Assembly (NCBI GenBank): GCA_038064855.1
Contig: JBBTSE010000007.1
Location: 238,097 to 302,096 of the forward strand
Source: Patescibacteria group bacterium
GTDB lineage: Bacteria; Patescibacteriota; Minisyncoccia; Ryanbacterales; GWA2-47-10b
Direction: 5' to 3'
Length of the DNA: 64,000 bases
Of this stretch, positions 12,567 to 41,857 are shown in pieces. The notes under the pieces were generated by a model. That model was not told the origin of the DNA. It searched no databases and saw only the letters and a list, made by a program, of their open reading frames with translations. Both the position numbers and the translations under genes were made by a program. Within the stretch, counting starts at the first letter, position 1, and each line of letters begins with the position of its first letter.

Positions 12567-12899
12567 TTACGCACCCATCGACATGCACTCCATGATCTCG
12601 ACATATGCGCCCGGCATTTTGAGATGCGGACTGTCGGCCATGATTGCGGCTGCGGCATCTTGTGATTCTGCTTCCAAGAGTGAATATCCGCCGATTTCGT
12701 TTGAAACATCAGTCGTGCCAGTTGCGGCCACTCGCTTGTTTTTACCAAGTGGTGCACCAAGGTCAACAATTTCTTTATGTGACTTTGCCCATGTCATCCA
12801 TACATCCATCTCAGCCTTCATATCTTCATGGGTTCTACCCTTCATCATCTCTGCCATTGCTGAAGCGGGCATCATATACAATGCTATAAACTTTTTCAT
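12567..12899 (-). CDS. Small conserved protein of unknown function, paralog of 38217-38552
   Basis: 110 aa. Aligns over its full length with the 38217 product (MK.F....M.PA..MAE.MK...W..W...HK..V..LGK.KRV.A.G..DV.N...PH...PGA..EIME). Confidence 0.6.
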   Translation of the reverse strand: MKKFIALYMMPASAMAEMMKGRTHEDMKAEMDVWMTWAKSHKEIVDLGAPLGKNKRVAATGTTDVSNEIGGYSLLEAESQDAAAAIMADSPHLKMPGAYVEIMECMSMGA

Positions 12900-15423: not shown

Positions 15424-15944
15424 GGGCCTATATTATCACCCCTCATCCAACAATCTATGGAGGATCGTAAAAATTTAGCACCCCAAGACACCGATTCAGC
15501 GTCTCGAACATTTTTTATATTTTTTGCTCCGTGAAAAAGATTGCAACGAATTTGGTAGACAAAATCAAAGACCTGTTCTAAGTTACTTTCATCTTGCAGA
15601 TAAACCAGTGTATTTGCACCTGGTCGCATATCTTGGATTGGAGAAAACTCTTTTAATTTAACTGCGTAGTTTGCCGACAAATTCCACCTAGTTAAAATAC
15701 AATCCTTAAAATCACTCTTATTTTGGTAAAAATAATTTAGTTTATCTCGATCCCGACCACACCGAGAAATCTCGGTTAAATATGCATCGAATATCATCCA
15801 GCACAGCATGAAGTCAAGCCATGGATCTTGCCATATTTTAAGCTTTACATTATTTAACTTGGCATTCCACCAAAACATTCTTTCTTTAAAGTCTTGATTA
15901 ACTTCATTTGTATACGAAAGAACCATAAAACTATTTTGCTTCAA
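15420..15944 (-). CDS. Hypothetical protein with R-x4-H (HEPN-like) motif, 3'-overlapping the Type IIG RM gene
   Basis: 174 aa. YQIRCNLFHGAKN carries an R-x4-H spacing. Its start overlaps the last 14 nt of the RM gene, suggesting co-transcription. The HEPN call is inference. Confidence 0.45.
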   Translation of the reverse strand: MKQNSFMVLSYTNEVNQDFKERMFWWNAKLNNVKLKIWQDPWLDFMLCWMIFDAYLTEISRCGRDRDKLNYFYQNKSDFKDCILTRWNLSANYAVKLKEFSPIQDMRPGANTLVYLQDESNLEQVFDFVYQIRCNLFHGAKNIKNVRDAESVSWGAKFLRSSIDCWMRGDNIGP

Positions 15945-18744
15945 TCGTCTTAATTTCCACAGGAGTGAGAGTGTAGAGTTTATATACCCGCTGATCTATT
16001 TCATTTTCCAGTCTTTCAACTTCGGCTTTGAGTGCATGCCATTTGTCAGTGTTTGCCGAAGTCTTGTTTAGTTCAGCATTACGAGCCGCAACCGTATCAA
16101 CGAGGTATGCAATTTTGCTCTGTTCGCTTTCGCCGACCTTGAGCAACGGAATGTCCATCAACGGTTCTTTATCAATTTGTAACTGCTCGCCCTGTTTTTT
16201 GCCTTTATGCTTGAGCCAGAAGTAGGCAAGATTTGAGTTTAGTATGCCCGTCAAGTATTTCAGGTTGATGTTTTCAAGCTTCAAGATAAGGAACGCTCGC
16301 GTAACATAGCAAGGAAAATCAACATAGGTGAATGCCGGATGCATTGTTTTTCGCAACAAGAAAATCGCTTGTCCTTTGAAAAACTTTTCTTCGCGCGGAC
16401 GATGTAAGCCATAAGGAGCAAACGCCGAAGTTAGGATTTTCTTGAAGCGATCAAGGTGATTTTTGAGATTTGGAAACTCACCAATATGTTCCCTGAAATA
16501 CTTGTCGGCGTAAATGATTTTGTACTGGCTTTCTCTGTCGCTTAAATACCTGTTTATCTGTGAAGTGCCGTAGTAAGGTTTTAGGTACTCACGCTCTTTT
16601 TCGTTGAGGTTCATTCCGGCAATCACCGAGTTCCCCAAGACGAACACCCCATCTCCTTTCTTGATGGTGTCGTCTTTCAATTTCGCCAAATGTGATTCCG
16701 AGACGAAATCTTGCAAGACATCTATCCCGTTTCCAATATCGTCCTTTGATAGTTTGAAGTTGCCCACTTTCTCTATCTTTTCCAAGACCTCGGAAACTGT
16801 GTCGTTTGAAAAACTGATGGATTTCCCGCCAGCGTTTACCGATTTTATAGCCGCTTCGTAAACAACTGAGTTTTCAACCTTTTTTTGCAAACCAGAGGAC
16901 AGAAGTGTGGCAACTTCTTCACTTGTCGTATTCTTGCCCGTGATCTTTGCATATTGAACCTTATATGATTTTCGCGGCTTTCTCTTTTGGAAAACGAAAA
17001 TCATTGTTTGAATGCTCGCGTCTTTGAAAACTCGGAAGTCATTGAAATCAACAAACTTGATGATTTCGCCGCTACTCAAAATCTTCTCGCGGAAAATACT
17101 TGCTCCGGCACTTCCGAGCCAACTTGAAGGTGCGATAAAGCTGAAATATCCGCCATCTTTGAGTTGGTCAATGGCGCGGGCGGCGAAAAGCGTCCAGATG
17201 TCCATTTTGCCCTGGTAGTAGGGACTTTCGTGCAAACCATTGAACGCGGCACGATTGGTGTCTTCCTTAATGTACGGTGGGTTGCCAATAATGACATCGA
17301 AGCCGCCCTGCTCGGCAACTCCCGCAAACTCTTTTTCAATATCAAACGGCTTCTGTTCCAACTCACCTTCAGCGAGAAGCGAGTTTCCGACGCGAAGGTT
17401 ATTTTGAAGCACTGGCAGTTTCGTCCTTTGTTGTAAAACTTTCAGAAGAAGGTTGAGCTGGGCGATTTCTACAGCTTGTCCGTCCAAATCGATACCATAG
17501 ATGTTGTCTTTCAAAATATCAAACTTGGTGAACAGCGAGCGTTTGTCTACACTTCCCAAAATCGTGTCGTAGGCGACGGTCAGGAACGAGCCAGAACCGC
17601 ACGCGGGGTCTAGGACTTTGACTTTGTGCATGTCTTTTGGTTTTGTCTTTTTCAATACTTCGCCGAGCGTTTCGCGGACGATAAACTCCACGATGTATTT
17701 CGGCGTGTAGTAAATACCTTGTGATTTGCGCTTTGATTTTACTTTCTCCTCGCCCTTGCGGACTTGGACGAAAGAAAGATATTGCTCGTAGATGCCGCCG
17801 AGCACGTCGGCGGAGATAGCGGAAAAATCGTAGCGATAGCCATCTTTTGTTTCGTACAGTCCTTTTAAGATTTCGGCGAAAACTTTGTCGTCAGCTTCCC
17901 ATTCTTCGCAGTAGTGGAGAGCAAACAGTTTTGAATTGTAGTGTTCGTCAAACCAACGGAAGCCCCGTATCATTCGCTTCCAGATATTCGTGCGCTTCGT
18001 CTCGTATTCGCGCAACAACGCTTGCAAAATAACTTGCTCAATTTTGCGATCTTCGGCAGTGCGGATGAAAATGAGGCGATCAAGAATACGCTGGACGCCC
18101 TCGTCTATTTCGTCAGTGGAAAGGTTGTTGCGCTTTTTGAACTCGGCAGAAAGCGCCACCCGCCAACTCATCAAATCCTCAAACAGTTTTTCGCCGACTT
18201 GCTTGCGCTTAGTGAGTTTGCCCCATTTTTCGGCTTCCTTATCCAAGAGCCGCTGTTCAAAACTCTCTTTTGAGAGAAGCCAAAGCTGATCAAAGCGGTC
18301 TAGGAACTCGTGGACGCCGATTTCAATGAACAGGTTGCGCGATACATCTTTCGGCGAGATTTCGGCGTTGAAAATCTTGATGGTCTCAAAGTCGGTGAGT
18401 ATTGCCCACGTCGCGCTTTTGTTCCAAGCATAATTTATTGCCTGTTCCGCCCATTTCCACTCGTCCAAATCAACTTTCATCGCTTTTGCTTCAAGGAAAA
18501 ATGTTGGGATACCACTCAAACGGAACGCGAGATCCACTCTGCCACCGGATACGTTCTCCTCAGTAGTAACTTCGCCGTCATTGGTGAGGTTACGCATATC
18601 CCAACCCAAAAACTCGAACAGCGGCTCTATGAACTCATTGCGAGTCTGTGCCTCGTTGTACGATTTGATTTTGCCATCCTGCAAGACGCGCTGATATTTC
18701 TCAACGAGTTTTTGTATTGATTGTTTTGCGTCTTGCTTGTTCAT
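15931..18744 (-). CDS. Type IIG/IIL restriction-modification enzyme (MmeI-like fused endonuclease and N6-adenine methyltransferase)
   Basis: 937 aa. N-terminal PD-(D/E)XK-like module (GGRVDLAF...FLEAKAMK), motif I VLDPACGSGSFL, motif IV IIGNPPY, and a long C-terminal target-recognition region. Size matches MmeI-family enzymes. Confidence 0.8.
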   Translation of the reverse strand: MNKQDAKQSIQKLVEKYQRVLQDGKIKSYNEAQTRNEFIEPLFEFLGWDMRNLTNDGEVTTEENVSGGRVDLAFRLSGIPTFFLEAKAMKVDLDEWKWAEQAINYAWNKSATWAILTDFETIKIFNAEISPKDVSRNLFIEIGVHEFLDRFDQLWLLSKESFEQRLLDKEAEKWGKLTKRKQVGEKLFEDLMSWRVALSAEFKKRNNLSTDEIDEGVQRILDRLIFIRTAEDRKIEQVILQALLREYETKRTNIWKRMIRGFRWFDEHYNSKLFALHYCEEWEADDKVFAEILKGLYETKDGYRYDFSAISADVLGGIYEQYLSFVQVRKGEEKVKSKRKSQGIYYTPKYIVEFIVRETLGEVLKKTKPKDMHKVKVLDPACGSGSFLTVAYDTILGSVDKRSLFTKFDILKDNIYGIDLDGQAVEIAQLNLLLKVLQQRTKLPVLQNNLRVGNSLLAEGELEQKPFDIEKEFAGVAEQGGFDVIIGNPPYIKEDTNRAAFNGLHESPYYQGKMDIWTLFAARAIDQLKDGGYFSFIAPSSWLGSAGASIFREKILSSGEIIKFVDFNDFRVFKDASIQTMIFVFQKRKPRKSYKVQYAKITGKNTTSEEVATLLSSGLQKKVENSVVYEAAIKSVNAGGKSISFSNDTVSEVLEKIEKVGNFKLSKDDIGNGIDVLQDFVSESHLAKLKDDTIKKGDGVFVLGNSVIAGMNLNEKEREYLKPYYGTSQINRYLSDRESQYKIIYADKYFREHIGEFPNLKNHLDRFKKILTSAFAPYGLHRPREEKFFKGQAIFLLRKTMHPAFTYVDFPCYVTRAFLILKLENINLKYLTGILNSNLAYFWLKHKGKKQGEQLQIDKEPLMDIPLLKVGESEQSKIAYLVDTVAARNAELNKTSANTDKWHALKAEVERLENEIDQRVYKLYTLTPVEIKTIEAK

Positions 18745-32494: not shown

Positions 32495-34561
32495 TTAGCT
32501 TAAAAGCTCTGATTCAACTCGTCTTAATAATACCGCGTTTGTAGCAACTATGATGGATGAGGCCGACATAAGCAACGCGGAAATCTCGGGGCGCAGTGAC
32601 CAACCGAGCGATGTATAAAACACTCCAGCAGCCACCGGAATCGCTAGTATATTATAAATTGCTGCCCAAAAAAGATTTTGCTTCATCTTGCGTACCGTTG
32701 CCTTGCTCAGACGAATGGCAGCGACTATATCATATGGATCGGATTTCATGAGGACAATATTACCCGTCTCTATAGCAACGTCCGTACCAGCGCCAATCGC
32801 AATACCAATATCTGACTGCGCGAGCGCTGGAGCGTCGTTGACGCCGTCGCCTACCATGGCGACAAATCTTCCTTCACTTTGAAGTTTTTTTATAAAACTC
32901 GCCTTATCTTCTGGCAACACTTCGGCAAATACACGATCAATGCCGAGCTCCGCCCCTACTGCTTCTGCTATTTTTTTGTTGTCTCCGGTAATCATGGCGG
33001 TTTGAATGCCGAGTTTTTTTAATTCGGTTATGGTCTTTTTTGATGATGCGCGAATAGAATCAGAAATACCAATGATACCCGCGACCACACCATCAACAGC
33101 TACGATACTCAATGTCTTCCCCTTTGCTAAGAGGCTCTCGATCTCACCTCTCATACTCTCAAACGCGACACCTTTGTCGCGCAGTAAACGCTCAGTGCCG
33201 ATAAGAACTTTTTTGCCATCTACGACTGCCTCGAGGCCTAAACCGGAAAGTGACTGGAAATTTTCCACCACAGATACATCGATGCTGTGTTTTTTTGCCT
33301 CGGCAATAATGGCCATTGAGAGCGGATGGCTTGATTTTGCCTCAACGCTTGCGGCAAACCGAAGAACATCTTTGTCAGAAAACCCACTGGCCGCGATAAC
33401 GTCTGTCACCTTTGGCTTGCCTTCGGTAAGCGTACCTGTTTTATCGAGCACGATGGCGTCTATCTTTGATGCGCCTTCGAGCGTTGTAGCATCTTTGATA
33501 AGAATATTGTGTTTTGCGCCAAGCCCCGTACCCACCGTGACTGCTGTTGGCGTAGCAAGGCCAAGGGCGTCTGGACAAGCAATCACAATAGCCGAGATAG
33601 CAAATGTAAGCGCCACAACGAACGGCGCGCCAGCAAAGACATACCAGCCAAAAAATGCGGCGATGCCAGACCCAATCGCGAGCACTACAAGCCATGAGGC
33701 GGCTTTATCAGCGATACGCTGCCCGGGCGCTTTGGAATTTTGTGCTGTTTCTACCATCTTGATGATAGAAGCAAGTACCGTATCTGCGCCAACTTTTGTC
33801 GCGCGAAATTGTACCGAACCGGCTTGGTTGATAGAACCACCAATCACCGCGTCTCCTATTTTTTTTGAAACTGGTAGTGATTCTCCTGTGACAAGTGATT
33901 CGTCGATCGCCGTCTCGCCCTCTATAACAATGCCATCAACCGGAGCCTTATCCCCCGGCTTTAACACCACCGTATCGTCCCGTAGCACCTCTGCGCTCGG
34001 TATCAAAACTTCTTTACCGTCACGCAAGACTCGGGCTTGCGGCGGCACCAGATCAAAAAGCGCGCGTAGTGAATCTGAAGTACCACGGCGTGATTTCATC
34101 TCCATCCAATGCCCAAAAAGAACGAAGGTGATAAGCATCGCCGCCGCCTCGTAAAACACTTCACCTCCCCCGATCAAAGAAAGCGCGATGCTACCGAGAT
34201 ACGCCGCCAACACACCGGTAGCGATCAAGACTGACATATTGAGTTTTTTCGCTCGGAGCGAGTAGTAGGTGCCTGTAATAAAAATAGATCCCGCCCAAAA
34301 CACGACTGGAGTCGTCAACAAAAAAAGAAGCAGGGTCTTTGGTATCGGTGACCACAGGGAAATATGAAAAAGCATCTCTCCCATGGGCGAGTAAAAAACA
34401 ATAGGAATAGTAAGCGCGAGCGCGACAAAAAAACGCCGACGCATATCTACCTCCATTTGTTTTGCCATTTGTGGGTTGGTCATCGCGGCCTCATGATCCG
34501 CATGAGACATCGCGGACATATCATGGCCGGCGTGTTGATGCTTGTGACGATCCTGATCCAT
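32495..34561 (-). CDS. Heavy-metal (copper-type) P1B ATPase with His-rich N-terminus
   Basis: DKTGTLT phosphorylation site, GDGVNDAPAL hinge, and TM6 motif IACPDALGLATP (CPx with x=D). His-rich N-terminal HKHQHAGHDMSAMSHADHE. Confidence 0.85.
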   Translation of the reverse strand: MDQDRHKHQHAGHDMSAMSHADHEAAMTNPQMAKQMEVDMRRRFFVALALTIPIVFYSPMGEMLFHISLWSPIPKTLLLFLLTTPVVFWAGSIFITGTYYSLRAKKLNMSVLIATGVLAAYLGSIALSLIGGGEVFYEAAAMLITFVLFGHWMEMKSRRGTSDSLRALFDLVPPQARVLRDGKEVLIPSAEVLRDDTVVLKPGDKAPVDGIVIEGETAIDESLVTGESLPVSKKIGDAVIGGSINQAGSVQFRATKVGADTVLASIIKMVETAQNSKAPGQRIADKAASWLVVLAIGSGIAAFFGWYVFAGAPFVVALTFAISAIVIACPDALGLATPTAVTVGTGLGAKHNILIKDATTLEGASKIDAIVLDKTGTLTEGKPKVTDVIAASGFSDKDVLRFAASVEAKSSHPLSMAIIAEAKKHSIDVSVVENFQSLSGLGLEAVVDGKKVLIGTERLLRDKGVAFESMRGEIESLLAKGKTLSIVAVDGVVAGIIGISDSIRASSKKTITELKKLGIQTAMITGDNKKIAEAVGAELGIDRVFAEVLPEDKASFIKKLQSEGRFVAMVGDGVNDAPALAQSDIGIAIGAGTDVAIETGNIVLMKSDPYDIVAAIRLSKATVRKMKQNLFWAAIYNILAIPVAAGVFYTSLGWSLRPEISALLMSASSIIVATNAVLLRRVESELLS

Positions 34562-34564
34562 CGA

Positions 34565-34786
34565 TTAGATAATCTCTCCACGCTTTTCAAGCATCATATG
34601 ATGAATCGTTGCGAGTTGAACCCAAACAGCGATTAGAACAAGAATGCCAGCGCAGAGCAATGCATCGATTTTTGTAATCCCAAATACCTGATCGTCGCCA
34701 CCGCCAAGGAGCGCGCCTGCAAATGCGATGACCCCAGCAAAACCTACAACGACGCTTACAACATGCATCAATTTTGATAGCTTCAT
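34565..34786 (-). CDS. Small 2-TM membrane protein immediately upstream of the P-type ATPase
   Basis: Start at MKLSKL. Its stop lies 3 nt before the ATPase start codon, consistent with co-transcription. Confidence 0.45.
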   Translation of the reverse strand: MKLSKLMHVVSVVVGFAGVIAFAGALLGGGDDQVFGITKIDALLCAGILVLIAVWVQLATIHHMMLEKRGEII

Positions 34787-34946
34787 ATTTTTTATACTTT
34801 TATTTAGCGAATAATCCAACCCCTTTATTATAACCCTTAAATGACTCAGAACCCATCGAGTCATCAGCGCTCATACCAGTGGGGCGGCCTAAAATTTGCT
34901 ATTATATTTAAATGAAATGTATTGTTTTTTCCTTTAGTATTTTAGT

Positions 34947-35486
34947 TCATGCTTTTTTGACGGCCCTTCTCAATTCTTTGTGATTTGGCAATGTTTTCGC
35001 GACTAACGCCCAAAAATTTTTTGAGTGATTGAGCTCTCCGAGATGACAGAGCTCATGCACGATAATATAATCAGCCAACTCTGCGGGCAATAGTACAATG
35101 CGATAGTTAAAATTGAGATTACCTTTTGCCGAACAGCTCCCCCACTTTGTTTTTTGATTGCGAATAACTATTTTATTGTACGCAAAACCATACGATTGGT
35201 TGAAGTGTTGCAATCTCCGTGTAGCAAGCGCTTTTGCCTCCAAAGATAAGCGGATTTTTTCTACCCTAGAGTGTTGTATCGGTTGCGTGACGGGAGGTAA
35301 TGTACCTACATAACGCAACCGTTCTGTAACCCATGCAATATTGCTCTCGAGAAACGTAAGAAAGTGACGAGTAGCGAGCCGCGCCGGTTGGGTAGCTCTC
35401 ACCGATCCATCTCGGTGTACTGAGATACGCATGCGCTTTGCGCGCGCGCTTTTATAAATCTTTACGGTGATGGCATCACCCATCAC
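34947..35486 (-). CDS. YgjP-like metal-dependent hydrolase (DUF45/SprT-like, HExxH)
   Basis: IIVHELCHL zinc-binding motif in a YgjP family context (YRIVLLPAEL). Confidence 0.8.
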   Translation of the reverse strand: MMGDAITVKIYKSARAKRMRISVHRDGSVRATQPARLATRHFLTFLESNIAWVTERLRYVGTLPPVTQPIQHSRVEKIRLSLEAKALATRRLQHFNQSYGFAYNKIVIRNQKTKWGSCSAKGNLNFNYRIVLLPAELADYIIVHELCHLGELNHSKNFWALVAKTLPNHKELRRAVKKA

Positions 35487-35505
35487 GAATGAGATGATCA
35501 GAAAT

Positions 35506-35931
35506 TTACATTGATAAGATAAACGCAGCCAGCATCAAGCCCACCAATTGATAGGTAATCATCACGAAGATTTGTTTTGCCCAAAACTGCTTTTTGGTAT
35601 TTGCCCACACAACTCCAGCTATCTGTGTAGGCGCTATAAAACCGAACCATATCCATCCGGCAACGCCATACGCATGAAAGCCTACATTGGCCATTTGTAA
35701 GTAGTGAACAAACATGGCCAATACAAAAGTGAAAATGACTGTCAATAAAAACTGAAGACCATAAAACGGTGCCATCTCTTTTTGCATCTTCTGTAACTCT
35801 TCTTTTGATAGGCGATCAGCCCCCATGATTTGCATCCACCATTTGCCGAACATCAAAGGTGAATACCATACCGCACCCAACACGAACTGCGCCAGTGCAG
35901 CCCCCAATATCAATGTGTAGTTTATTTCCAT
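35506..35931 (-). CDS. DUF1761-like membrane protein
   Basis: 141 aa, four TM helices, GAVWYSPLMFGKWW N-terminal motif. Confidence 0.55.
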   Translation of the reverse strand: MEINYTLILGAALAQFVLGAVWYSPLMFGKWWMQIMGADRLSKEELQKMQKEMAPFYGLQFLLTVIFTFVLAMFVHYLQMANVGFHAYGVAGWIWFGFIAPTQIAGVVWANTKKQFWAKQIFVMITYQLVGLMLAAFILSM

Positions 35932-35964
35932 ATAAATACTATAGCAATATTTTAATCTGTATAT

Positions 35965-36171
35965 CTAGGATTCCACTACAGGATGCCGTTTTCCGGCTGC
36001 AAGCATAACGCAAACTTTTGCGATACGAACGCCTCGCGCCTCCGATTCTTTAGCTAAGTCTATCCAACGGACAAAATCTCTACGCGCGTCTGGTGTGAGA
36101 CCCTCCCAAATAACCTTTGCTTTTGGCGTACTGACAAGTACGCGACGAAGATCAATTGGTATTTTCCCCAT
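35965..36171 (-). CDS. YdeI/OmpD-associated (OmdA-like) small protein
   Basis: LTPDARRDFVRWIDLAKESEARGVRIAKV matches the OmdA C-terminal domain pattern. Its start overlaps the upstream gene stop (TGATG). Confidence 0.55.
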   Translation of the reverse strand: MGKIPIDLRRVLVSTPKAKVIWEGLTPDARRDFVRWIDLAKESEARGVRIAKVCVMLAAGKRHPVVES

Positions 36172-37352
36172 CAAACCTCGCTGACGCGTTTTCGCATAAG
36201 GCGGCGTACAAAAAAGAATCCGACAACGAGTACCACCGCGATACCACCATAGGTCATAACAGCACCCCAAGAGCCGCCGCGAGAGCTTTTGTAGTCGCCA
36301 ACGAGATCTCCCGTATATGCTACCTCGGTCGGATTTACAGCGTCGGGGTCAATGAACGCAAATGGAGTAATCTTGGGCGGCTCTGAAAAATCGCCCGCTT
36401 CAAGACCGTGCTTTTGCAAAAGAGCATCCCACTCGTAGGGTGCCTCGGCGATACCTGAGGCACTCGCCACTGCTGCGGTACCCGTGGTGATTACCTTTTT
36501 CTTTTGTGGGCTATCTTTGAGCCATACATCGATCGCGCCTTCCTGTACCGCGTACTGTGCTTTGCCATCTTCTGAGGTGATCATAAATGTCGTCCCCTTT
36601 CTGCCGGTGATAGAATGCGCACCTCCTTCCTCAATTTCCAGCATGTCATTGGTCACCAAGCGCTTGAGTGCGCTCCATATAAAAAGCGTACCGCGCTCGA
36701 GAAGCGTACGCTCTTGCTGGGGTGATGGCATGCGCAAGGTGGAGCGCTCAAGAAGATAAAAGTTGGAACTGCCAAAGCGGAGCTGGGCGCGCCCCTTGAT
36801 GGTTGTATACAATACATCGCCCTCAAAAATCTGTAGCCCGCCCCCTGATATGGGGCCCGTCCACTTGCCGCGCCCTGGTGAGTAGAGAAAAAATTCGCCT
36901 TCGCCGAGTACCACATACCCCACGATCTGGGTACCGCCGACTGTTTCAACTTTTGGAAGATTATATATTTCCTCGATTGATCGAACATCTTTTGGGTTTT
37001 TACACACGCCTTCACTCCGTACTTCATTTGCCTCGCAATACCCACACTCTGCATTTAATACAGAATAAATACCGCCGCTAGCCATGCAGCTCCTGCCAAA
37101 CATTTCTTTTTGGCCCTTTACATATTCATCAAATGCCGCGTAAAGCTTGTCACTGGCAGCGTTTCGCTCCATGCCGATGTCTTTACACATCTGATTGTGC
37201 CGCGCGCACTTACAAATACGATAATCGATTTTTGCCCCACAAAAATCGTTATGCACTTCGGGATACTTAAAATAATCAGTTTTCGCGTACGCGGACGGTA
37301 TGACAAATGGAAAGAGTAACGCGCAGGCAAATAAAACACGCTTGATTTGCAT
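36171..37352 (-). CDS. Secreted Cys-rich protein with C-terminal TM anchor
   Basis: Signal peptide (LFACALLFPFVIPSAYA), a Cys-rich N-terminal third, and a C-terminal TM plus basic tail (GGIAVVLVVGFFFVRRLMRKR). Confidence 0.55.
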   Translation of the reverse strand: MQIKRVLFACALLFPFVIPSAYAKTDYFKYPEVHNDFCGAKIDYRICKCARHNQMCKDIGMERNAASDKLYAAFDEYVKGQKEMFGRSCMASGGIYSVLNAECGYCEANEVRSEGVCKNPKDVRSIEEIYNLPKVETVGGTQIVGYVVLGEGEFFLYSPGRGKWTGPISGGGLQIFEGDVLYTTIKGRAQLRFGSSNFYLLERSTLRMPSPQQERTLLERGTLFIWSALKRLVTNDMLEIEEGGAHSITGRKGTTFMITSEDGKAQYAVQEGAIDVWLKDSPQKKKVITTGTAAVASASGIAEAPYEWDALLQKHGLEAGDFSEPPKITPFAFIDPDAVNPTEVAYTGDLVGDYKSSRGGSWGAVMTYGGIAVVLVVGFFFVRRLMRKRVSEV

Positions 37353-37519
37353 GTCCTTATACTACTATTCCTCCCCCTCCCCATCAAACATCAATGGAGC
37401 TAGCTAACCAAAGACGGGTTTGACCGAGTGAGCTCATGTAACTTTTCTACAAACCATATAGTTATAAATAACAATAAATATATATTGAAAAACGATATAT
37501 ACTAATATAAAATAAAGCT

Positions 37520-38002
37520 ATGAAAAAAAGCTCAACAATATTTCTCCAAATAATTATTGTACTCATCGGCATTGGTGCGCTCGCTCTCTTGCTCTGGGAG
37601 CCTCACCTCGAAGGTGTGAATGCTAACGCAACTTCCCTCTCTGAAATATATTTTGATGATCCCTTTTTAATACTTGTCTATATGGGGTCTATTCCCTTCT
37701 TCGTAGCATTATATCAGGCGTTTGCGTTGCTCGGACTCATCGGACACGACAAGACATTCTCGACAGAAGCGGTAAAATGTTTGCGAACCATAAAATATTG
37801 CGCGCTGGGCATCATTGGTTTTGTCGCCATAGAAGAAATGATCATCATACTCAACCACGGTAATGATGATATCGCGGGCGGTGTCGCCATGGGTGTTATG
37901 ATTACATTTGGCTCGATCATCATTGCCACAGCCGCAGCCGTATTTGAAAAACTTTTACAAAACGCTGTAGATATAAAGTCTGAAAATGACTTAACCGTTT
38001 AA
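37520..38002 (+). CDS. DUF2975-family membrane protein
   Basis: Four TM helices. Conserved pairing with a downstream XRE regulator, 4 nt apart. Confidence 0.6.
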   Translation: MKKSSTIFLQIIIVLIGIGALALLLWEPHLEGVNANATSLSEIYFDDPFLILVYMGSIPFFVALYQAFALLGLIGHDKTFSTEAVKCLRTIKYCALGIIGFVAIEEMIIILNHGNDDIAGGVAMGVMITFGSIIIATAAAVFEKLLQNAVDIKSENDLTV

Positions 38003-38006
38003 CCCT

Positions 38007-38207
38007 ATGGCAATCATCATTAACATTGATGTGATGTTGGCAAAGCGCAAGATGAGCGTCACCGAGCTTGCAGACAAAGTGGGCATCACGATGGCCAATA
38101 TCTCTGTATTGAAAAATGGCAAAGCAAAAGCGATTCGTCTCTCAACCTTGGATGCGATTTGCAAGGCTCTGAGTTGTCAGCCGGGCGATATTTTGGAGTA
38201 TCAATAA
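38007..38207 (+). CDS. XRE-family HTH transcriptional regulator
   Basis: MSVTELADKVGITMANISVLKNGKAKAIRLSTLDAICKALSCQPGDIL is a Cro/C1-type HTH. 66 aa. Confidence 0.85.
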   Translation: MAIIINIDVMLAKRKMSVTELADKVGITMANISVLKNGKAKAIRLSTLDAICKALSCQPGDILEYQ

Positions 38208-38216
38208 AGAGACGCC

Positions 38217-38552
38217 TTACATTTGGCGGACTTCCATTATCTCAATCGTGGCGCCAGGAATGGTGAAGTGCGGATGATTCTTGAAAAGCTCAGCTACTGC
38301 CTCTGCAGACTCACCCTGCACATACGAAGAAAGCATCATATCGTTTTTTACATCTTCGATGCCCGATGCACTCACGCGCTTTGTCTTGCCCAAGGCAATA
38401 GTGTTGAGCACGGTATCTTTGTGTGCCGCCATCCACGCATCCCAATCTGCTTTCATCTTTGCCTCCTCATCCTTGCGCTCTGCCTCTGGCCTCTTCATCC
38501 ACTCCGCCATAGTTGCTGCAGGCGCCATAAATATAACAGTGAAATTTTTCAT
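38217..38552 (-). CDS. Small conserved protein of unknown function, paralog of 12567-12899
   Basis: 111 aa, collinear with the 12567 product. Confidence 0.6.
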   Translation of the reverse strand: MKNFTVIFMAPAATMAEWMKRPEAERKDEEAKMKADWDAWMAAHKDTVLNTIALGKTKRVSASGIEDVKNDMMLSSYVQGESAEAVAELFKNHPHFTIPGATIEIMEVRQM

Positions 38553-38652
38553 ATACAGAGCGTAGCACGCCGGACTATAAATCTATAGTTGACTAACCTT
38601 TTCGGTCTCGTAAACTTCTCCATCAAGCCCTACGCGGCCTTTCTGATGACTT

Positions 38653-38982
38653 TTATCCTATAATTTTGAATCTAACAATTTTTGCTGGAGTATCGTCACT
38701 GATATTTGGATAATATTTTTTAAGTGTTTGATACATATCATCGTAATCTTTAAACGGCTCGTGGCCTACGAGGTCATCGGCATTTACTTTGGAAAGCGGT
38801 TTTTCTATAACCTCGGTTATGTCTACGCGAGCAAATGTCTCACCAGTATCAGAATTGGTAAGCTCTAGCTCGTCGCCCTTTGTTAAATTTTTGTCATCAA
38901 AAAGCCGAAGAGAAGAAGTCTTGGTTCCCTCCAAAATCATCTTTGCCTTAAAATCTCGAAACTTAAGAGTTTTCATACTCAA
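38653..38982 (-). CDS. ASCH domain (PUA-like) protein
   Basis: ILEGTKTSSLR motif of the ASCH fold. 109 aa. Starts 5 nt after the HNH gene stop. Confidence 0.7.
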   Translation of the reverse strand: MSMKTLKFRDFKAKMILEGTKTSSLRLFDDKNLTKGDELELTNSDTGETFARVDITEVIEKPLSKVNADDLVGHEPFKDYDDMYQTLKKYYPNISDDTPAKIVRFKIIG

Positions 38983-38987
38983 ACTAG

Positions 38988-39701
38988 CTATTCAATTTTG
39001 TCTGATTTTTGTAAATTATGCTTCATGCAAAGCAAACGTACATTTTTTGTGGATAGACTCGTCCCTCCTTTTGAAAACGGCAAATCATGGTCAAAATGCA
39101 AGTTTTTGGTATCGCCACACATAACACACCTACCTTGATCTCGCTTCCAAACCTCCCTTTTTACTTCAGAAGGTATTAGTCTTGTATGCTCAATAATTGC
39201 ACTTGTTATATTAGCCACTCCACTTCGATCAGAAAGCCGTAAAAGATAACGAAATACATTCCTTCTACCATCATGGATTACCTTACAATCAATTAAGTCG
39301 AAAAAGCCTTTTAAAGACCAGACGCCAGGGAATACTTTCTCATACACCTTAACAAGTTCGGGGAGAGATTCGCCCTCTTTAAATTCTTTGACAGCTTTTA
39401 TAAAATAACCATTTTGAGCAAGCTTTCCGCTGGGCAATTTCTCACGTTGGTCTTCTACTTTCGGATTATGACTCTGATCATGCGATTTTTTAGAGACATC
39501 GTGCCCCTCATACTCAATCGTTATCCCATCTTCATGAATCTTATCTTTATACGGCGCGCTAGATCTTTGAGACATTAAAATAACAGAATACTTCGGGTTC
39601 ATTCTGAAATTCATACCGCGTTGGAGTGTCTGAACATTTTCAGCGTCACACATCCCACGATAGCTTAATATATCGTCCTGAATTTTATTCAGATTATCCA
39701 T
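38988..39701 (-). CDS. HNH endonuclease with N-terminal putative modified-base-reading (SRA-like) domain
   Basis: C-terminal HNH (CVMCGDTKNLHFDHDLPFSKGGTSLSTKNVRLLCMKHNLQKSDK). The N-terminal ~150 aa has an SVILMSQRSSAPYKDKIHEDGITIEYEGHD pattern reminiscent of SRA/YDG cores. The SRA call is inference. Confidence 0.6.
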   Translation of the reverse strand: MDNLNKIQDDILSYRGMCDAENVQTLQRGMNFRMNPKYSVILMSQRSSAPYKDKIHEDGITIEYEGHDVSKKSHDQSHNPKVEDQREKLPSGKLAQNGYFIKAVKEFKEGESLPELVKVYEKVFPGVWSLKGFFDLIDCKVIHDGRRNVFRYLLRLSDRSGVANITSAIIEHTRLIPSEVKREVWKRDQGRCVMCGDTKNLHFDHDLPFSKGGTSLSTKNVRLLCMKHNLQKSDKIE

Positions 39702-39853
39702 TTTTTTATTTCTTGGCTGACTGACTCGGTTGTGAACCCTACACCTTGAGACCTTGTAAGGGTTCTTTGAGTACTTTCAGTGTAGCAAATTGAGGCATCT
39801 CAGTCTGGTCTCAATAGACACGATGGACACTATAAAAAGGGGCCGGAAAGTGT

Positions 39854-40564
39854 CTATTCTCTACCTATCTCATCTAGCACCTGTGCGCGCCTCTCGGCGT
39901 TCGGCATATCCAAGACAAGCGTCTCTGTACCACCATTCAAGAGCCTGCGGAAATACAGCGAAACTGAGAAGACATTCAGCGTCTCGAACGGTGCTCGGAC
40001 AAACGTATCGGGCAACCCCAAGTCATGTGTAGGTACTTGGAAAAATGGCTCCGGATTGGCGTCTGTGGAATTGGACATCGGCATCCAGTAAATCACTAAT
40101 GGTTGCACCTTAGACTCGGCGTATTGTTCTGGAAGTCTCATGGCAGTGAAAACCTTCGTGACACTATTTGGATGTACAGCAGACTGAAATGTTTTCAGTT
40201 GACCCTTCCAATAGTGAGCGACAGCTTTCTTGACTTCCTCCTCACTGCAGTCGATTGGGAGCCTGTGCCCGCCGATAGCCGATGCCGCCCAGTTCTTTAT
40301 TTCGCATTGGTACAAAATCTTTTCGCCCGTCTGCTTGTTGCGTGTTTGTATCCATCTGTCCAAACGCTTTCCACTTCTTGTACCGGGTGTCGGGGAGTCT
40401 GCACTTACGGTCGCTTCTCGCACCCCGTCTCTGCCAATGTAGTGCGCAAATGCGGCGGCGTTCAAGTCTTCGCCGATGACACCCGTGATTGCTGACGAAT
40501 GTCTGTTGTCTCCCTTCTTCGGGTCATCGAGAAACGTTAAGAGATTTCGTAGATTTAGATTCAT
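39854..40564 (-). CDS. Hypothetical protein adjacent to tRNA-Gln
   Basis: Start at MNLNLRN, 8 nt downstream of the tRNA. No recognised motif. Confidence 0.45.
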   Translation of the reverse strand: MNLNLRNLLTFLDDPKKGDNRHSSAITGVIGEDLNAAAFAHYIGRDGVREATVSADSPTPGTRSGKRLDRWIQTRNKQTGEKILYQCEIKNWAASAIGGHRLPIDCSEEEVKKAVAHYWKGQLKTFQSAVHPNSVTKVFTAMRLPEQYAESKVQPLVIYWMPMSNSTDANPEPFFQVPTHDLGLPDTFVRAPFETLNVFSVSLYFRRLLNGGTETLVLDMPNAERRAQVLDEIGRE

Positions 40565-40571
40565 AAAGTGT

Positions 40572-40645
40572 TGGCTGGGGGACATGGATTCGAACCATGA
40601 TACTCGCCTCCAAAGGGCGATGTCCTGCCGTTAGACGATCCCCCA
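40572..40645 (-). tRNA. tRNA-Gln (anticodon UUG)
   Basis: Manual fold: acceptor UGGGGGA/UCCCCCA with U1-A72, typical of tRNA-Gln. D-loop with GG. Anticodon stem UCGCC/GGCGA with loop CUUUGGA. T-arm GGTTCGAATCC. Discriminator G followed by CCA. Confidence 0.85.
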
Positions 40646-40717
40646 GTATTACTTGGGAACGCGCTTTTTTGGCGCGTATGTATCATATCCAAAAAAGGCC
40701 TCGCTGGCAACGAGAAG

Positions 40718-41857
40718 CTATTTGAGAAATGCCGGTTTCTCGAGTGTTTTTTGTGGCTCCTGTTCGGAGAGTGACAAGAGTGCGAGCTCGAGCGGTAGAT
40801 CGGGAAAAGTACCACGAAATCCGATGTTGTGGGCTTCGAGCAGTTTTACCAAGAGCTGCTCGATATCTTTTTTGGGAAGCGTATGGTGCGAGGTGAAAAA
40901 TGCCGCGTGGGTTTCTGATAATTCTTTTTGTAGGCGTTCAAGATCTTTGGGATTATATGCCGATACAAAAAGCTCACGCGCTTCGTGTACCAACATGCGC
41001 GAGAGAAGCTTGGGCTCAATACCGTCTTTGCGTATGCCGCCGAGCGCATCGAGTACTCGTACCGGTTCACGCTTGAGTGCGGCATCGAGCAATTCGTGGA
41101 TCTGCCCAATCTTTGGCAGACCAAACAGATTGGTAAGCGCATCTTTGTCAGCGCCCTCAATATACGCATCCATCACCTGCCCCAGCATAGTCTCTGCATC
41201 ACGCATAGAACCATCTGCTAAAAATGCCAGCATCACAGTACCCTCGCTATCAATCTTATATTTCTCACTCTTTGCGACACGCATAAGCTCTTCGCGTATC
41301 ACGCTCTCGCTGATGCGACGAAATTCAAAACTTTGCGAGCGTGACAAAATAGTATCAGGCACGCGATCGAGCTCGGTCGTGGCCATGATAAACATAGCGT
41401 GCGCGGGCGGTTCTTCAAGAGTTTTGAGAAGTGCGTTAAACGCATCTTTGGTGAGCATATGTACCTCGTCGATGATATATACTTTGCGCTTTGCGCGCAT
41501 GGGCGTAAAACGCACCGCCTCTTTGAGCTCACGGATATCATCAATACCGCGATTTGATGCCGCGTCGATTTCAACTAAGTCAAAGGCTTTGCCCGAAGAA
41601 AAATCTTTACATATATCGCATGTATTGCACGGCTCACTGTCCTTACCGCGCTTCTCACAATTGAAAGCTTTGGCGAGCAAGCGCGCGAGTGTAGTCTTGC
41701 CCGTACCGCGCGTGCCAGAAAAAATATATGCGTGGGAAACACGCTCAAGGCGCAAAGCGTTTTTGAGTACATTTACAATATGATCTTGACCTACGACATC
41801 GGAAAATCGCTGGGGACGATACTTGCGATACAAAACAACATGATCGGGCTTTTGCAT
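40718..41857 (-). CDS. dnaX: DNA polymerase III subunit gamma/tau (short form)
   Basis: YRPQRFSDVVGQDHIV, GTRGTGKTT Walker A, and a Cys4 zinc module (CNTCDIC). Confidence 0.9.
   Translation of the reverse strand: MQKPDHVVLYRKYRPQRFSDVVGQDHIVNVLKNALRLERVSHAYIFSGTRGTGKTTLARLLAKAFNCEKRGKDSEPCNTCDICKDFSSGKAFDLVEIDAASNRGIDDIRELKEAVRFTPMRAKRKVYIIDEVHMLTKDAFNALLKTLEEPPAHAMFIMATTELDRVPDTILSRSQSFEFRRISESVIREELMRVAKSEKYKIDSEGTVMLAFLADGSMRDAETMLGQVMDAYIEGADKDALTNLFGLPKIGQIHELLDAALKREPVRVLDALGGIRKDGIEPKLLSRMLVHEARELFVSAYNPKDLERLQKELSETHAAFFTSHHTLPKKDIEQLLVKLLEAHNIGFRGTFPDLPLELALLSLSEQEPQKTLEKPAFLK

Follow-up and report, generated by a model that had tools for sequence, protein, structure and literature searches.

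A gene for a 237-aa HNH protein lies on the minus strand at 38988-39701 of a 64-kb stretch of DNA from a Patescibacteria metagenome-assembled genome of Hainich groundwater (hereafter the window, whose positions serve as coordinates throughout), downstream of a tRNA-Gln gene and directly upstream of a gene for a small ASCH protein. This arrangement raises the question of whether the HNH protein is a restriction enzyme, whether it acts alone or with its neighbor, and whether the genes arrived together as an island. A preceding reading of the letters alone (the sequence-only reading) had proposed a two-component modification-dependent restriction system on an acquired, tRNA-adjacent island. The present analysis points to a simpler unit: the HNH gene probably encodes a stand-alone Type IV modification-dependent restriction endonuclease with the SRA-HNH architecture of the TagI/ScoA3IV kind, and the ASCH gene is a lineage-specific neighbor.

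The N-terminal half of the protein was assigned to the SRA/YDG domain at the level of family profiles rather than from the single protein. A search with this domain through 1.84 billion cluster representatives returned 704 families, and six of ten distant representatives gave sub-threshold matches to Pfam SAD_SRA (22-25 bits) that covered most of the domain. Profile A3, built from 32 diverse N-terminal domains and searched against all PDB sequences, matched the SRA domains of SUVH5 (E=8.3e-6, profile positions 21-149) and SUVH6 (6e-4) over nearly the whole domain. Additionally, most of the best 120 proteins in an N-terminal domain profile search, at 40-53% identity to the query, have PF02182 and PF01844 among their precomputed annotations, and the top Foldseek matches of the predicted model were likewise to the SUVH5 SRA domain. 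In the SUVH5 alignment, Q27-R28-G29 falls on Gln392-Ser393-Gly394, and Y51, D53 and Y64 fall on Tyr416, Asp418 and Tyr428. Gln392 of SUVH5 is the thumb residue that occupies the gap of the flipped base, Tyr416 and Tyr428 stack on that base and Asp418 reads its Watson-Crick edge (PMC4740795); the TagI equivalents of the two tyrosines are Tyr55 and Tyr67 (PMC6212794). At E<=1e-3 the full-length family numbers 5,974 proteins, of which the top 120 are 74-83% identical to the query; in an alignment of 32 of these 120, Q27, G29, Y51, D53 and Y64 are invariant, and Y51, D53, Y64 and G66 stay invariant or at least 90% conserved in alignments down to 32% identity.

Combined, these results agree with the sequence-only reading that the N-terminal half is SRA-like: judged by its sequence, it is a divergent SRA/YDG domain that keeps its cytosine-type pocket intact. 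Eukaryotic readers of 5-methylcytosine (5mC) include the SRA domains of SUVH5, SUVH6 and UHRF1, and by sequence profile SUVH5 and SUVH6 are the closest solved relatives of the domain described here, with the thumb glutamine and glycine, both stacking tyrosines and the aspartate all aligning. Those proteins, however, are chromatin readers joined to SET or RING domains with no nuclease, whereas the reader in the window is joined to an HNH domain and its relatives stand in prokaryotic defense contexts.

For the C-terminal domain, the Pfam HNH match (residues 192-234) is marginal when taken alone, at 21.8 bits against a cutoff of 21.4. Nevertheless, the call is secure because the catalytic and zinc-binding columns C192, C195, H202, D204, H205, N220, C225, H228 and N229 are invariant across the 32 homologs, with the spacing C192-x2-C195, H202-F-D204-H205, N220 and C225-x2-H228-N229. 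The nuclease active site and the zinc site are therefore intact, which removes the objection of degenerate catalytic residues that had been raised beforehand. PHROG HNH families match the domain down to 7e-11, and a PDB search with the single protein returned only weak matches to IscB and SAVED-HNH, in the HNH part.

Since the SRA domain is supported, the HNH residues are preserved and the gene has no cognate methyltransferase beside it, the Type IV modification-dependent class proposed earlier appears to be the right one by domains, key residues and gene context. No methyltransferase was called within +/-10 kb of the SRA-HNH gene; the nearest is an Eco57I-like N6-adenine fusion at 15931-18744, which is the only DNA methyltransferase signature in the window. 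A scan of the 64 kb for C5-methyltransferase motifs found none, and this is consistent, for that part of the genome, with tolerance of a 5mC-dependent nuclease. Gene context was compared across 80 loci (L005-L084) from species-representative genomes that carry close relatives of 62-80% identity. A conventional Type II restriction-modification system, in which the HNH protein would be the nuclease and its methyltransferase would be encoded elsewhere, draws on a weak match of the C-terminal 60 residues to the PADLOC REase_II model (5.4e-6) and on seven of the 80 loci where an N6_N4 methyltransferase is encoded two genes upstream. In those seven loci, however, the methyltransferase is paired with an MvaI/BcnI endonuclease of its own as a complete system, whereas most of the 80 loci, like the window, have no adjacent methyltransferase at all. 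Additionally, an SRA reader with an intact 5mC-type pocket favors cleavage that depends on modification over cleavage that is blocked by it, and the Type II explanation is considered highly improbable.

For the Type IV enzyme, substrate, cleavage and defensive role are proposed on the model of TagI and of SRA complexes with solved structures. The SRA domain would flip a C5-modified cytosine (5mC or 5-hydroxymethylcytosine, 5hmC) out of incoming duplex DNA, and the flipped base would be held between Y51 and Y64 while D53 reads its Watson-Crick edge and Q27 of the thumb loop fills the gap in the helix. The HNH domain would then nick or cut nearby, using H205 as the putative general base together with N220, H228/N229 and the C192/C195/C225 zinc site. 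The enzyme probably works as a dimer, and the host would be spared self-cleavage by not making 5mC.

TagI, ScoA3IV (Sco5333) and TbiR51I are characterized SRA-HNH Type IV enzymes (PMC6212794, PMC4333417, PMC6765204), and like the window protein they combine an N-terminal SRA domain and a C-terminal HNH domain in one small polypeptide. The pocket walls are two tyrosines 12-13 residues apart in both cases (Tyr55/Tyr67 in TagI, Y51/Y64 in the window protein), accompanied by a carboxylate, and the HNH zinc ligands, the lack of a cognate methyltransferase and the defense contexts are also shared. The differences lie in length (237 aa, the TagI chain having 285 aa) and in the SRA domain, which by sequence is nearer to plant SUVH5/6 than to TagI/ScoMcrA. 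Furthermore, the window clade belongs mainly to uncultured lineages of low GC (guanine plus cytosine) content, Patescibacteria among them; the ScoA3IV group, in contrast, is reported mostly from GC-rich Actino- and Proteobacteria (PMC6765204); the window clade is also far more conserved across hosts, and the activity of its member here is a predicted one. The EVE-HNH (VcaM4I), PUA-HNH and DUF3427-type enzymes, including McaZI, follow the same logic of a modified-base sensor of the PUA superfamily coupled to a nuclease; in contrast to these, the sensor here is an SRA domain and the window itself holds no DUF2075 or MazG-like gene.

The ASCH gene directly follows the HNH gene, as the sequence-only reading had described, with a TTG start 5 nt past the HNH stop codon or an ATG start at 11 nt. 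Its product, of about 107 aa, consists of an ASCH domain alone (Pfam PF04266, 39.8 bits against a cutoff of 21.2, residues 6-108 on profile positions 1-102 of 103). If the two proteins formed a two-component modification-dependent system, the ASCH protein would be a second reader, an eraser, a regulator or an immunity factor. Such a pairing would fit the spacing of 5-11 nt with no terminator-like site between the genes, their common position in a low-GC block (0.38 and 0.37, the window as a whole having 0.47), and the membership of ASCH in the PUA-like superfamily, which provides the sensor in other modification-dependent enzymes (PMC6765204). The pairing is, however, unconserved, being found in 0 of the 80 SRA-HNH loci and 0 of ten ASCH loci. 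A tblastn search with the window ASCH over the 80 loci (+/-6 kb) found nothing outside four contigs of the same organism, and a profile of ASCH relatives run against six-frame translations of those loci found nothing. A Pfam scan of 70 immediate downstream neighbors of SRA-HNH genes showed them to be heterogeneous, with no recurrent family and ASCH unlisted. From the opposite direction, ten metagenomic loci with ASCH relatives of 37-87% identity (L085-L094) contained no SRA-HNH gene within 4 kb.

The link between the two genes therefore consists of the 5-nt spacing and the common low GC, in this genome only. Low GC proves no co-acquisition, because in eight of the ten other ASCH loci, too, the GC content of the ASCH gene falls below that of its flanks, and the characterized SRA-HNH enzymes act alone (PMC6212794, PMC6765204). 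As a conserved system, the two-component proposal is largely refuted and must be rated very unlikely; the main practical result is a negative one, in that SRA-HNH plus ASCH is not to be kept as a predicted system. The ASCH protein is a lineage-specific neighbor, not a system component or conserved partner. The two genes are probably co-transcribed in this genome, given the short spacer, the lack of a terminator-like site and a promoter-like site upstream; the latter is a consensus match only, the count of such sites in the region being not above shuffled expectation. That the two became a functional pair within this lineage, with the ASCH protein recognizing or removing a second modification or tempering the nuclease, is likewise very doubtful.

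The ASCH protein itself belongs to a subfamily marked by the block RLFDDKNLTKxD, in which 11 of 12 positions are invariant (x being G or E), and by an invariant G71-H72-E73; across the window protein and its relatives in L085-L094, the block and the G-H-E motif are kept even at 38% overall identity. In common with the minimal ASCH proteins of the YqfB type (N4-acetylcytidine amidohydrolase), to which it has a weak NCBIfam match (E=1.5e-4), it has a conserved K19 in an xKTS/T segment, R24 and G-H-E, whereas the RLFDDKNLTKxD block is specific to its own subfamily. It is not a YqfB equivalog (NF003443), because its score of 22 bits lies below the cutoff of 93. The protein matches phrog_32075 at 1e-13, and single-sequence and profile searches of the PDB detected no solved ASCH relative. 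PDB matches to DARPins (ankyrin repeats) were rejected as an artefact of summed insignificant matches to a repeated 26-residue unit. In L087 and L088, the ASCH gene directly follows a gene for a YgjP-like metallopeptidase.

A different partnership was seen around the SRA-HNH gene in related loci. In 23 of the 80, a MazG-like protein of about 115 aa and a helicase of the DUF2075/Schlafen type (619-802 aa) are encoded directly upstream of SRA-HNH (including L009, L015, L018, L019, L033, L035, L037, L038, L042, L051, L052, L058, L067, L073 and L084), with stop and start codons often overlapping and RadC sometimes encoded further upstream. Among PADLOC models, PDC-S41, Nhi and AbiO match the helicase, and a literature search found no published description of the three-gene arrangement. 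The arrangement is paralleled by McaZI, which adjoins a DUF2075 NTPase (Lutz et al.). The three genes may form a modification-dependent system coupled to nucleoside triphosphates (NTP). Additionally, four of the 80 loci encode a DpnI-like methyl-directed nuclease, and RadC and Fic are other recurrent neighbors. None of these partners (MazG-like/DUF2075, MvaI/BcnI, DpnI-like or other recurrent ones) is present in the window. The context of SRA-HNH is one of defense islands, in which it stands as a unit complete in itself, at times in an operon with an NTPase gene.

The proposal of island acquisition next to the tRNA gene was upheld in part. In its favor, the block of HNH and ASCH genes has a GC content of 0.38-0.39 over 38500-39750 against about 0.48 in its flanks, and at its upper edge contigs break in three independent assemblies of this population: L104 and L105 end at 39760, L003 and L004 start at 39800 and L002 starts at 39814. 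The contigs overlap by 55 nt and were therefore read as an assembly-graph branch, which suggests strain-level alternative junctions between the tRNA-adjacent gene and SRA-HNH. Gene content varies as well: L005, L010 and L048 have other genes both in the interval from tRNA-Gln to SRA-HNH and downstream of SRA-HNH. On the other side, no integrase or recombinase was called within +/-10 kb, in agreement with the earlier statement that no integrase remains. The interval 34500-40800 contains no att-like repeat, such as a direct copy of the tRNA-Gln 3' end, and a tRNA-Gln gene also precedes SRA-HNH on the same strand in seven other genomes (L005, L007, L010, L048, L049, L053 and L054); a tRNA-Asn gene does so in L012 and L013. 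Three of the seven (L005, L010 and L048) share dnaX upstream as well, and L010 additionally shares genes for an 819-aa protein and GtrA. A one-off island is weakened by this recurrence. Beyond the three dnaX-linked loci, the tRNA-adjacent loci have no detectable common flanking genes. The most fitting description of the region is a variable hotspot close to a tRNA gene, with SRA-HNH as a long-standing or recurrent resident, rather than a discrete integrated island. A mobile cassette of tRNA-Gln plus SRA-HNH was considered and rejected, since the tRNA genes and flanks are host-specific. Across the 80 loci, seven of 21 tRNA genes are tRNA-Gln, with both ttg and ctg anticodons represented.

The SRA-HNH subfamily is distributed patchily across phyla, with 496 matches among 185,579 species genomes, and its members occur in no fewer than about 500 species-level genomes of bacteria and archaea. 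Relatives of 62-80% identity are spread over Patescibacteria, Acidobacteriota, Proteobacteria, Omnitrophota, Bacteroidota and archaea, and the protein shows 76-79% identity in genome pairs where DnaX reaches only 37-44%. Identity is 80-88% at codon positions 1 and 2 and about 44% at position 3; the near-saturation of synonymous sites therefore indicates strong purifying selection combined with horizontal spread. A recent horizontal sweep as the source of the high identity was rejected, third codon positions being near saturation. No full-length SRA-HNH protein was found in cultured phage, plasmid or IMG/VR collections, which gave HNH-domain-only matches or nothing. The GC content of the SRA-HNH gene is below that of its flanks in 45 of the 80 loci and above it in one.

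Several observations weigh against a Type IV restriction enzyme. A direct Pfam scan of the window protein returned no SRA match for the N-terminal 170 residues, and the family profile searched against the PDB did not detect TagI, ScoMcrA or UHRF1 at E<=10; because the profile misses TagI and ScoMcrA, the link to the characterized bacterial enzymes rests on architecture, not on close homology. The check for C5-methyltransferases covers 64 kb of the host genome only. Furthermore, the purifying selection is much stronger than usual for restriction enzymes and might reflect a constrained role that goes further than simple restriction. On this basis the protein might be mainly non-defensive, either as a constrained genome-maintenance nuclease acting on modified or damaged host cytosines or as a selfish, homing-like HNH enzyme. 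Its exceptional conservation, with 65-83% identity across Patescibacteria, Acidobacteriota, Proteobacteria, Omnitrophota and archaea and above that of DnaX in the same genome pairs, the contrast between codon positions and its recurrence downstream of tRNA-Gln or tRNA-Asn without detectable common flanking genes would all suit such a role. The patchy distribution, the GC systematically below the flanks and the defense-gene neighbors argue against it, as do host-typical adjacent tRNA genes with no conserved flanking DNA or cassette ends and no target-site repeats found. The non-defensive role is considered unlikely, and it is retained because the conservation is unusual for a restriction enzyme.

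Read as a Type IV enzyme, the protein adds a well-supported SRA-HNH member to a candidate-phyla-radiation (Patescibacteria) genome. The SRA-HNH architecture was already known; the most notable points are the extreme conservation of the subfamily and its frequent coupling to MazG-like proteins and DUF2075 helicases in related loci. A compact subfamily of about 230 aa is thereby defined, one that standard Pfam thresholds miss. A Type IV enzyme at this locus would imply that mobile DNA or phages with C5-modified cytosine are a relevant threat in groundwater communities of the candidate phyla radiation, and enzymes of the subfamily could serve as small 5mC/5hmC-dependent nucleases.

Between tRNA-Gln and SRA-HNH lies a gene annotated as hypothetical, which the sequence-only reading had placed next to the tRNA; it is present, and the start at 40564 chosen by the gene caller leaves a 7-nt gap to the tRNA. 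Its 236-aa product has no family match in Pfam, PADLOC, NCBIfam or PHROG scans and belongs to an unannotated family of 116 proteins with few named members, from Patescibacteria. The residues E32, D69 and E88-x-K90 are invariant in this family, and the structural model has a predicted local distance difference test (pLDDT) score of 93.2. The family profile had no match among PDB sequences, leaving the fold comparison alone as informative. The protein is confidently modeled as a PD-(D/E)xK nuclease with a restriction-endonuclease-like fold.

The gene for a 93%-identical homolog of this predicted nuclease (L095/L096) is translationally coupled to a gene for an LmuB-like SMC ATPase, whose stop codon it overlaps (LmuB model, 1.2e-20), in a defense island that also holds a Type ISP-like enzyme, a serine recombinase and an MvaI/BcnI system, and other homologs adjoin a methyl-directed endonuclease or a recombinase. 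Lamassu systems combine an LmuB SMC ATPase with an effector; the corresponding ATPase adjacency exists for the L095/L096 homolog but not in the window, where no LmuB-like partner was found, nor was one found in L098, L100 or L102.

Table 1. Features of the tRNA-Gln/SRA-HNH region; positions refer to the window unless a contig is named.
Feature	Position	Strand	Remarks
dnaX	40718-41857	-	tRNA-Gln immediately downstream
tRNA-Gln, anticodon ttg	40572..40645	-	ARAGORN; start of the variable region
PD-(D/E)xK nuclease (predicted), annotated 'hypothetical', 236 aa	39854..40564	-	longer open reading frame 39854-40585, 243 aa
Promoter-like site TAGACA-16-TATAGT	39829..39856	-	10/12 consensus matches; upstream of SRA-HNH
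Variable junction, in the 152-nt spacer between the PD-(D/E)xK gene and SRA-HNH	39760..39814	.	contig ends and GC change
SRA-HNH protein, 237 aa	38988-39701	-	open reading frame and domain evidence
SRA/YDG domain, about residues 9-160	39222..39677	-	thumb Q27-R28-G29; pocket Y51, D53, Y64; G66
HNH (beta-beta-alpha-Me) domain, residues 176-237	38991..39176	-	Pfam HNH and HNH_5
ASCH protein, 107-109 aa	38653..38982	-	Pfam ASCH E=8e-10, full length
111-aa protein	38217..38552	-	host-like GC; paralog at 12576-12899
HTH_26/XRE regulator	38007-38207	+	Pfam HTH_26 3.2e-25
DUF2975 membrane protein	37520-38002	+	Pfam DUF2975 6.5e-30
93%-identical PD-(D/E)xK homolog with LmuB-like ATPase	L095 5554-8711		

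All genes of the run listed in the sequence-only reading (the tRNA-adjacent hypothetical, HNH, ASCH, a small protein of a paralog family, XRE and DUF2975) were found where it had placed them, the first four on the minus strand (Table 1). The DUF2975 and HTH_26/XRE genes are a separate two-gene module on the strand opposite to the nuclease genes, and the 111-aa protein is outside the nuclease unit. The paralogy noted for the latter holds, its paralog on the minus strand being 41% identical. Neither member of this pair of about 110 aa has a family assignment except for a weak PADLOC match to JukA (E=0.005). The Eco57I-like fusion at 15931-18744, on the minus strand, is a second defense gene in the window: a 937-aa Eco57I/MmeI-like Type IIG restriction-modification fusion that combines an HSDR_N-like N-terminus, an N6-adenine methyltransferase with an NPPY motif and a TaqI_C specificity domain.

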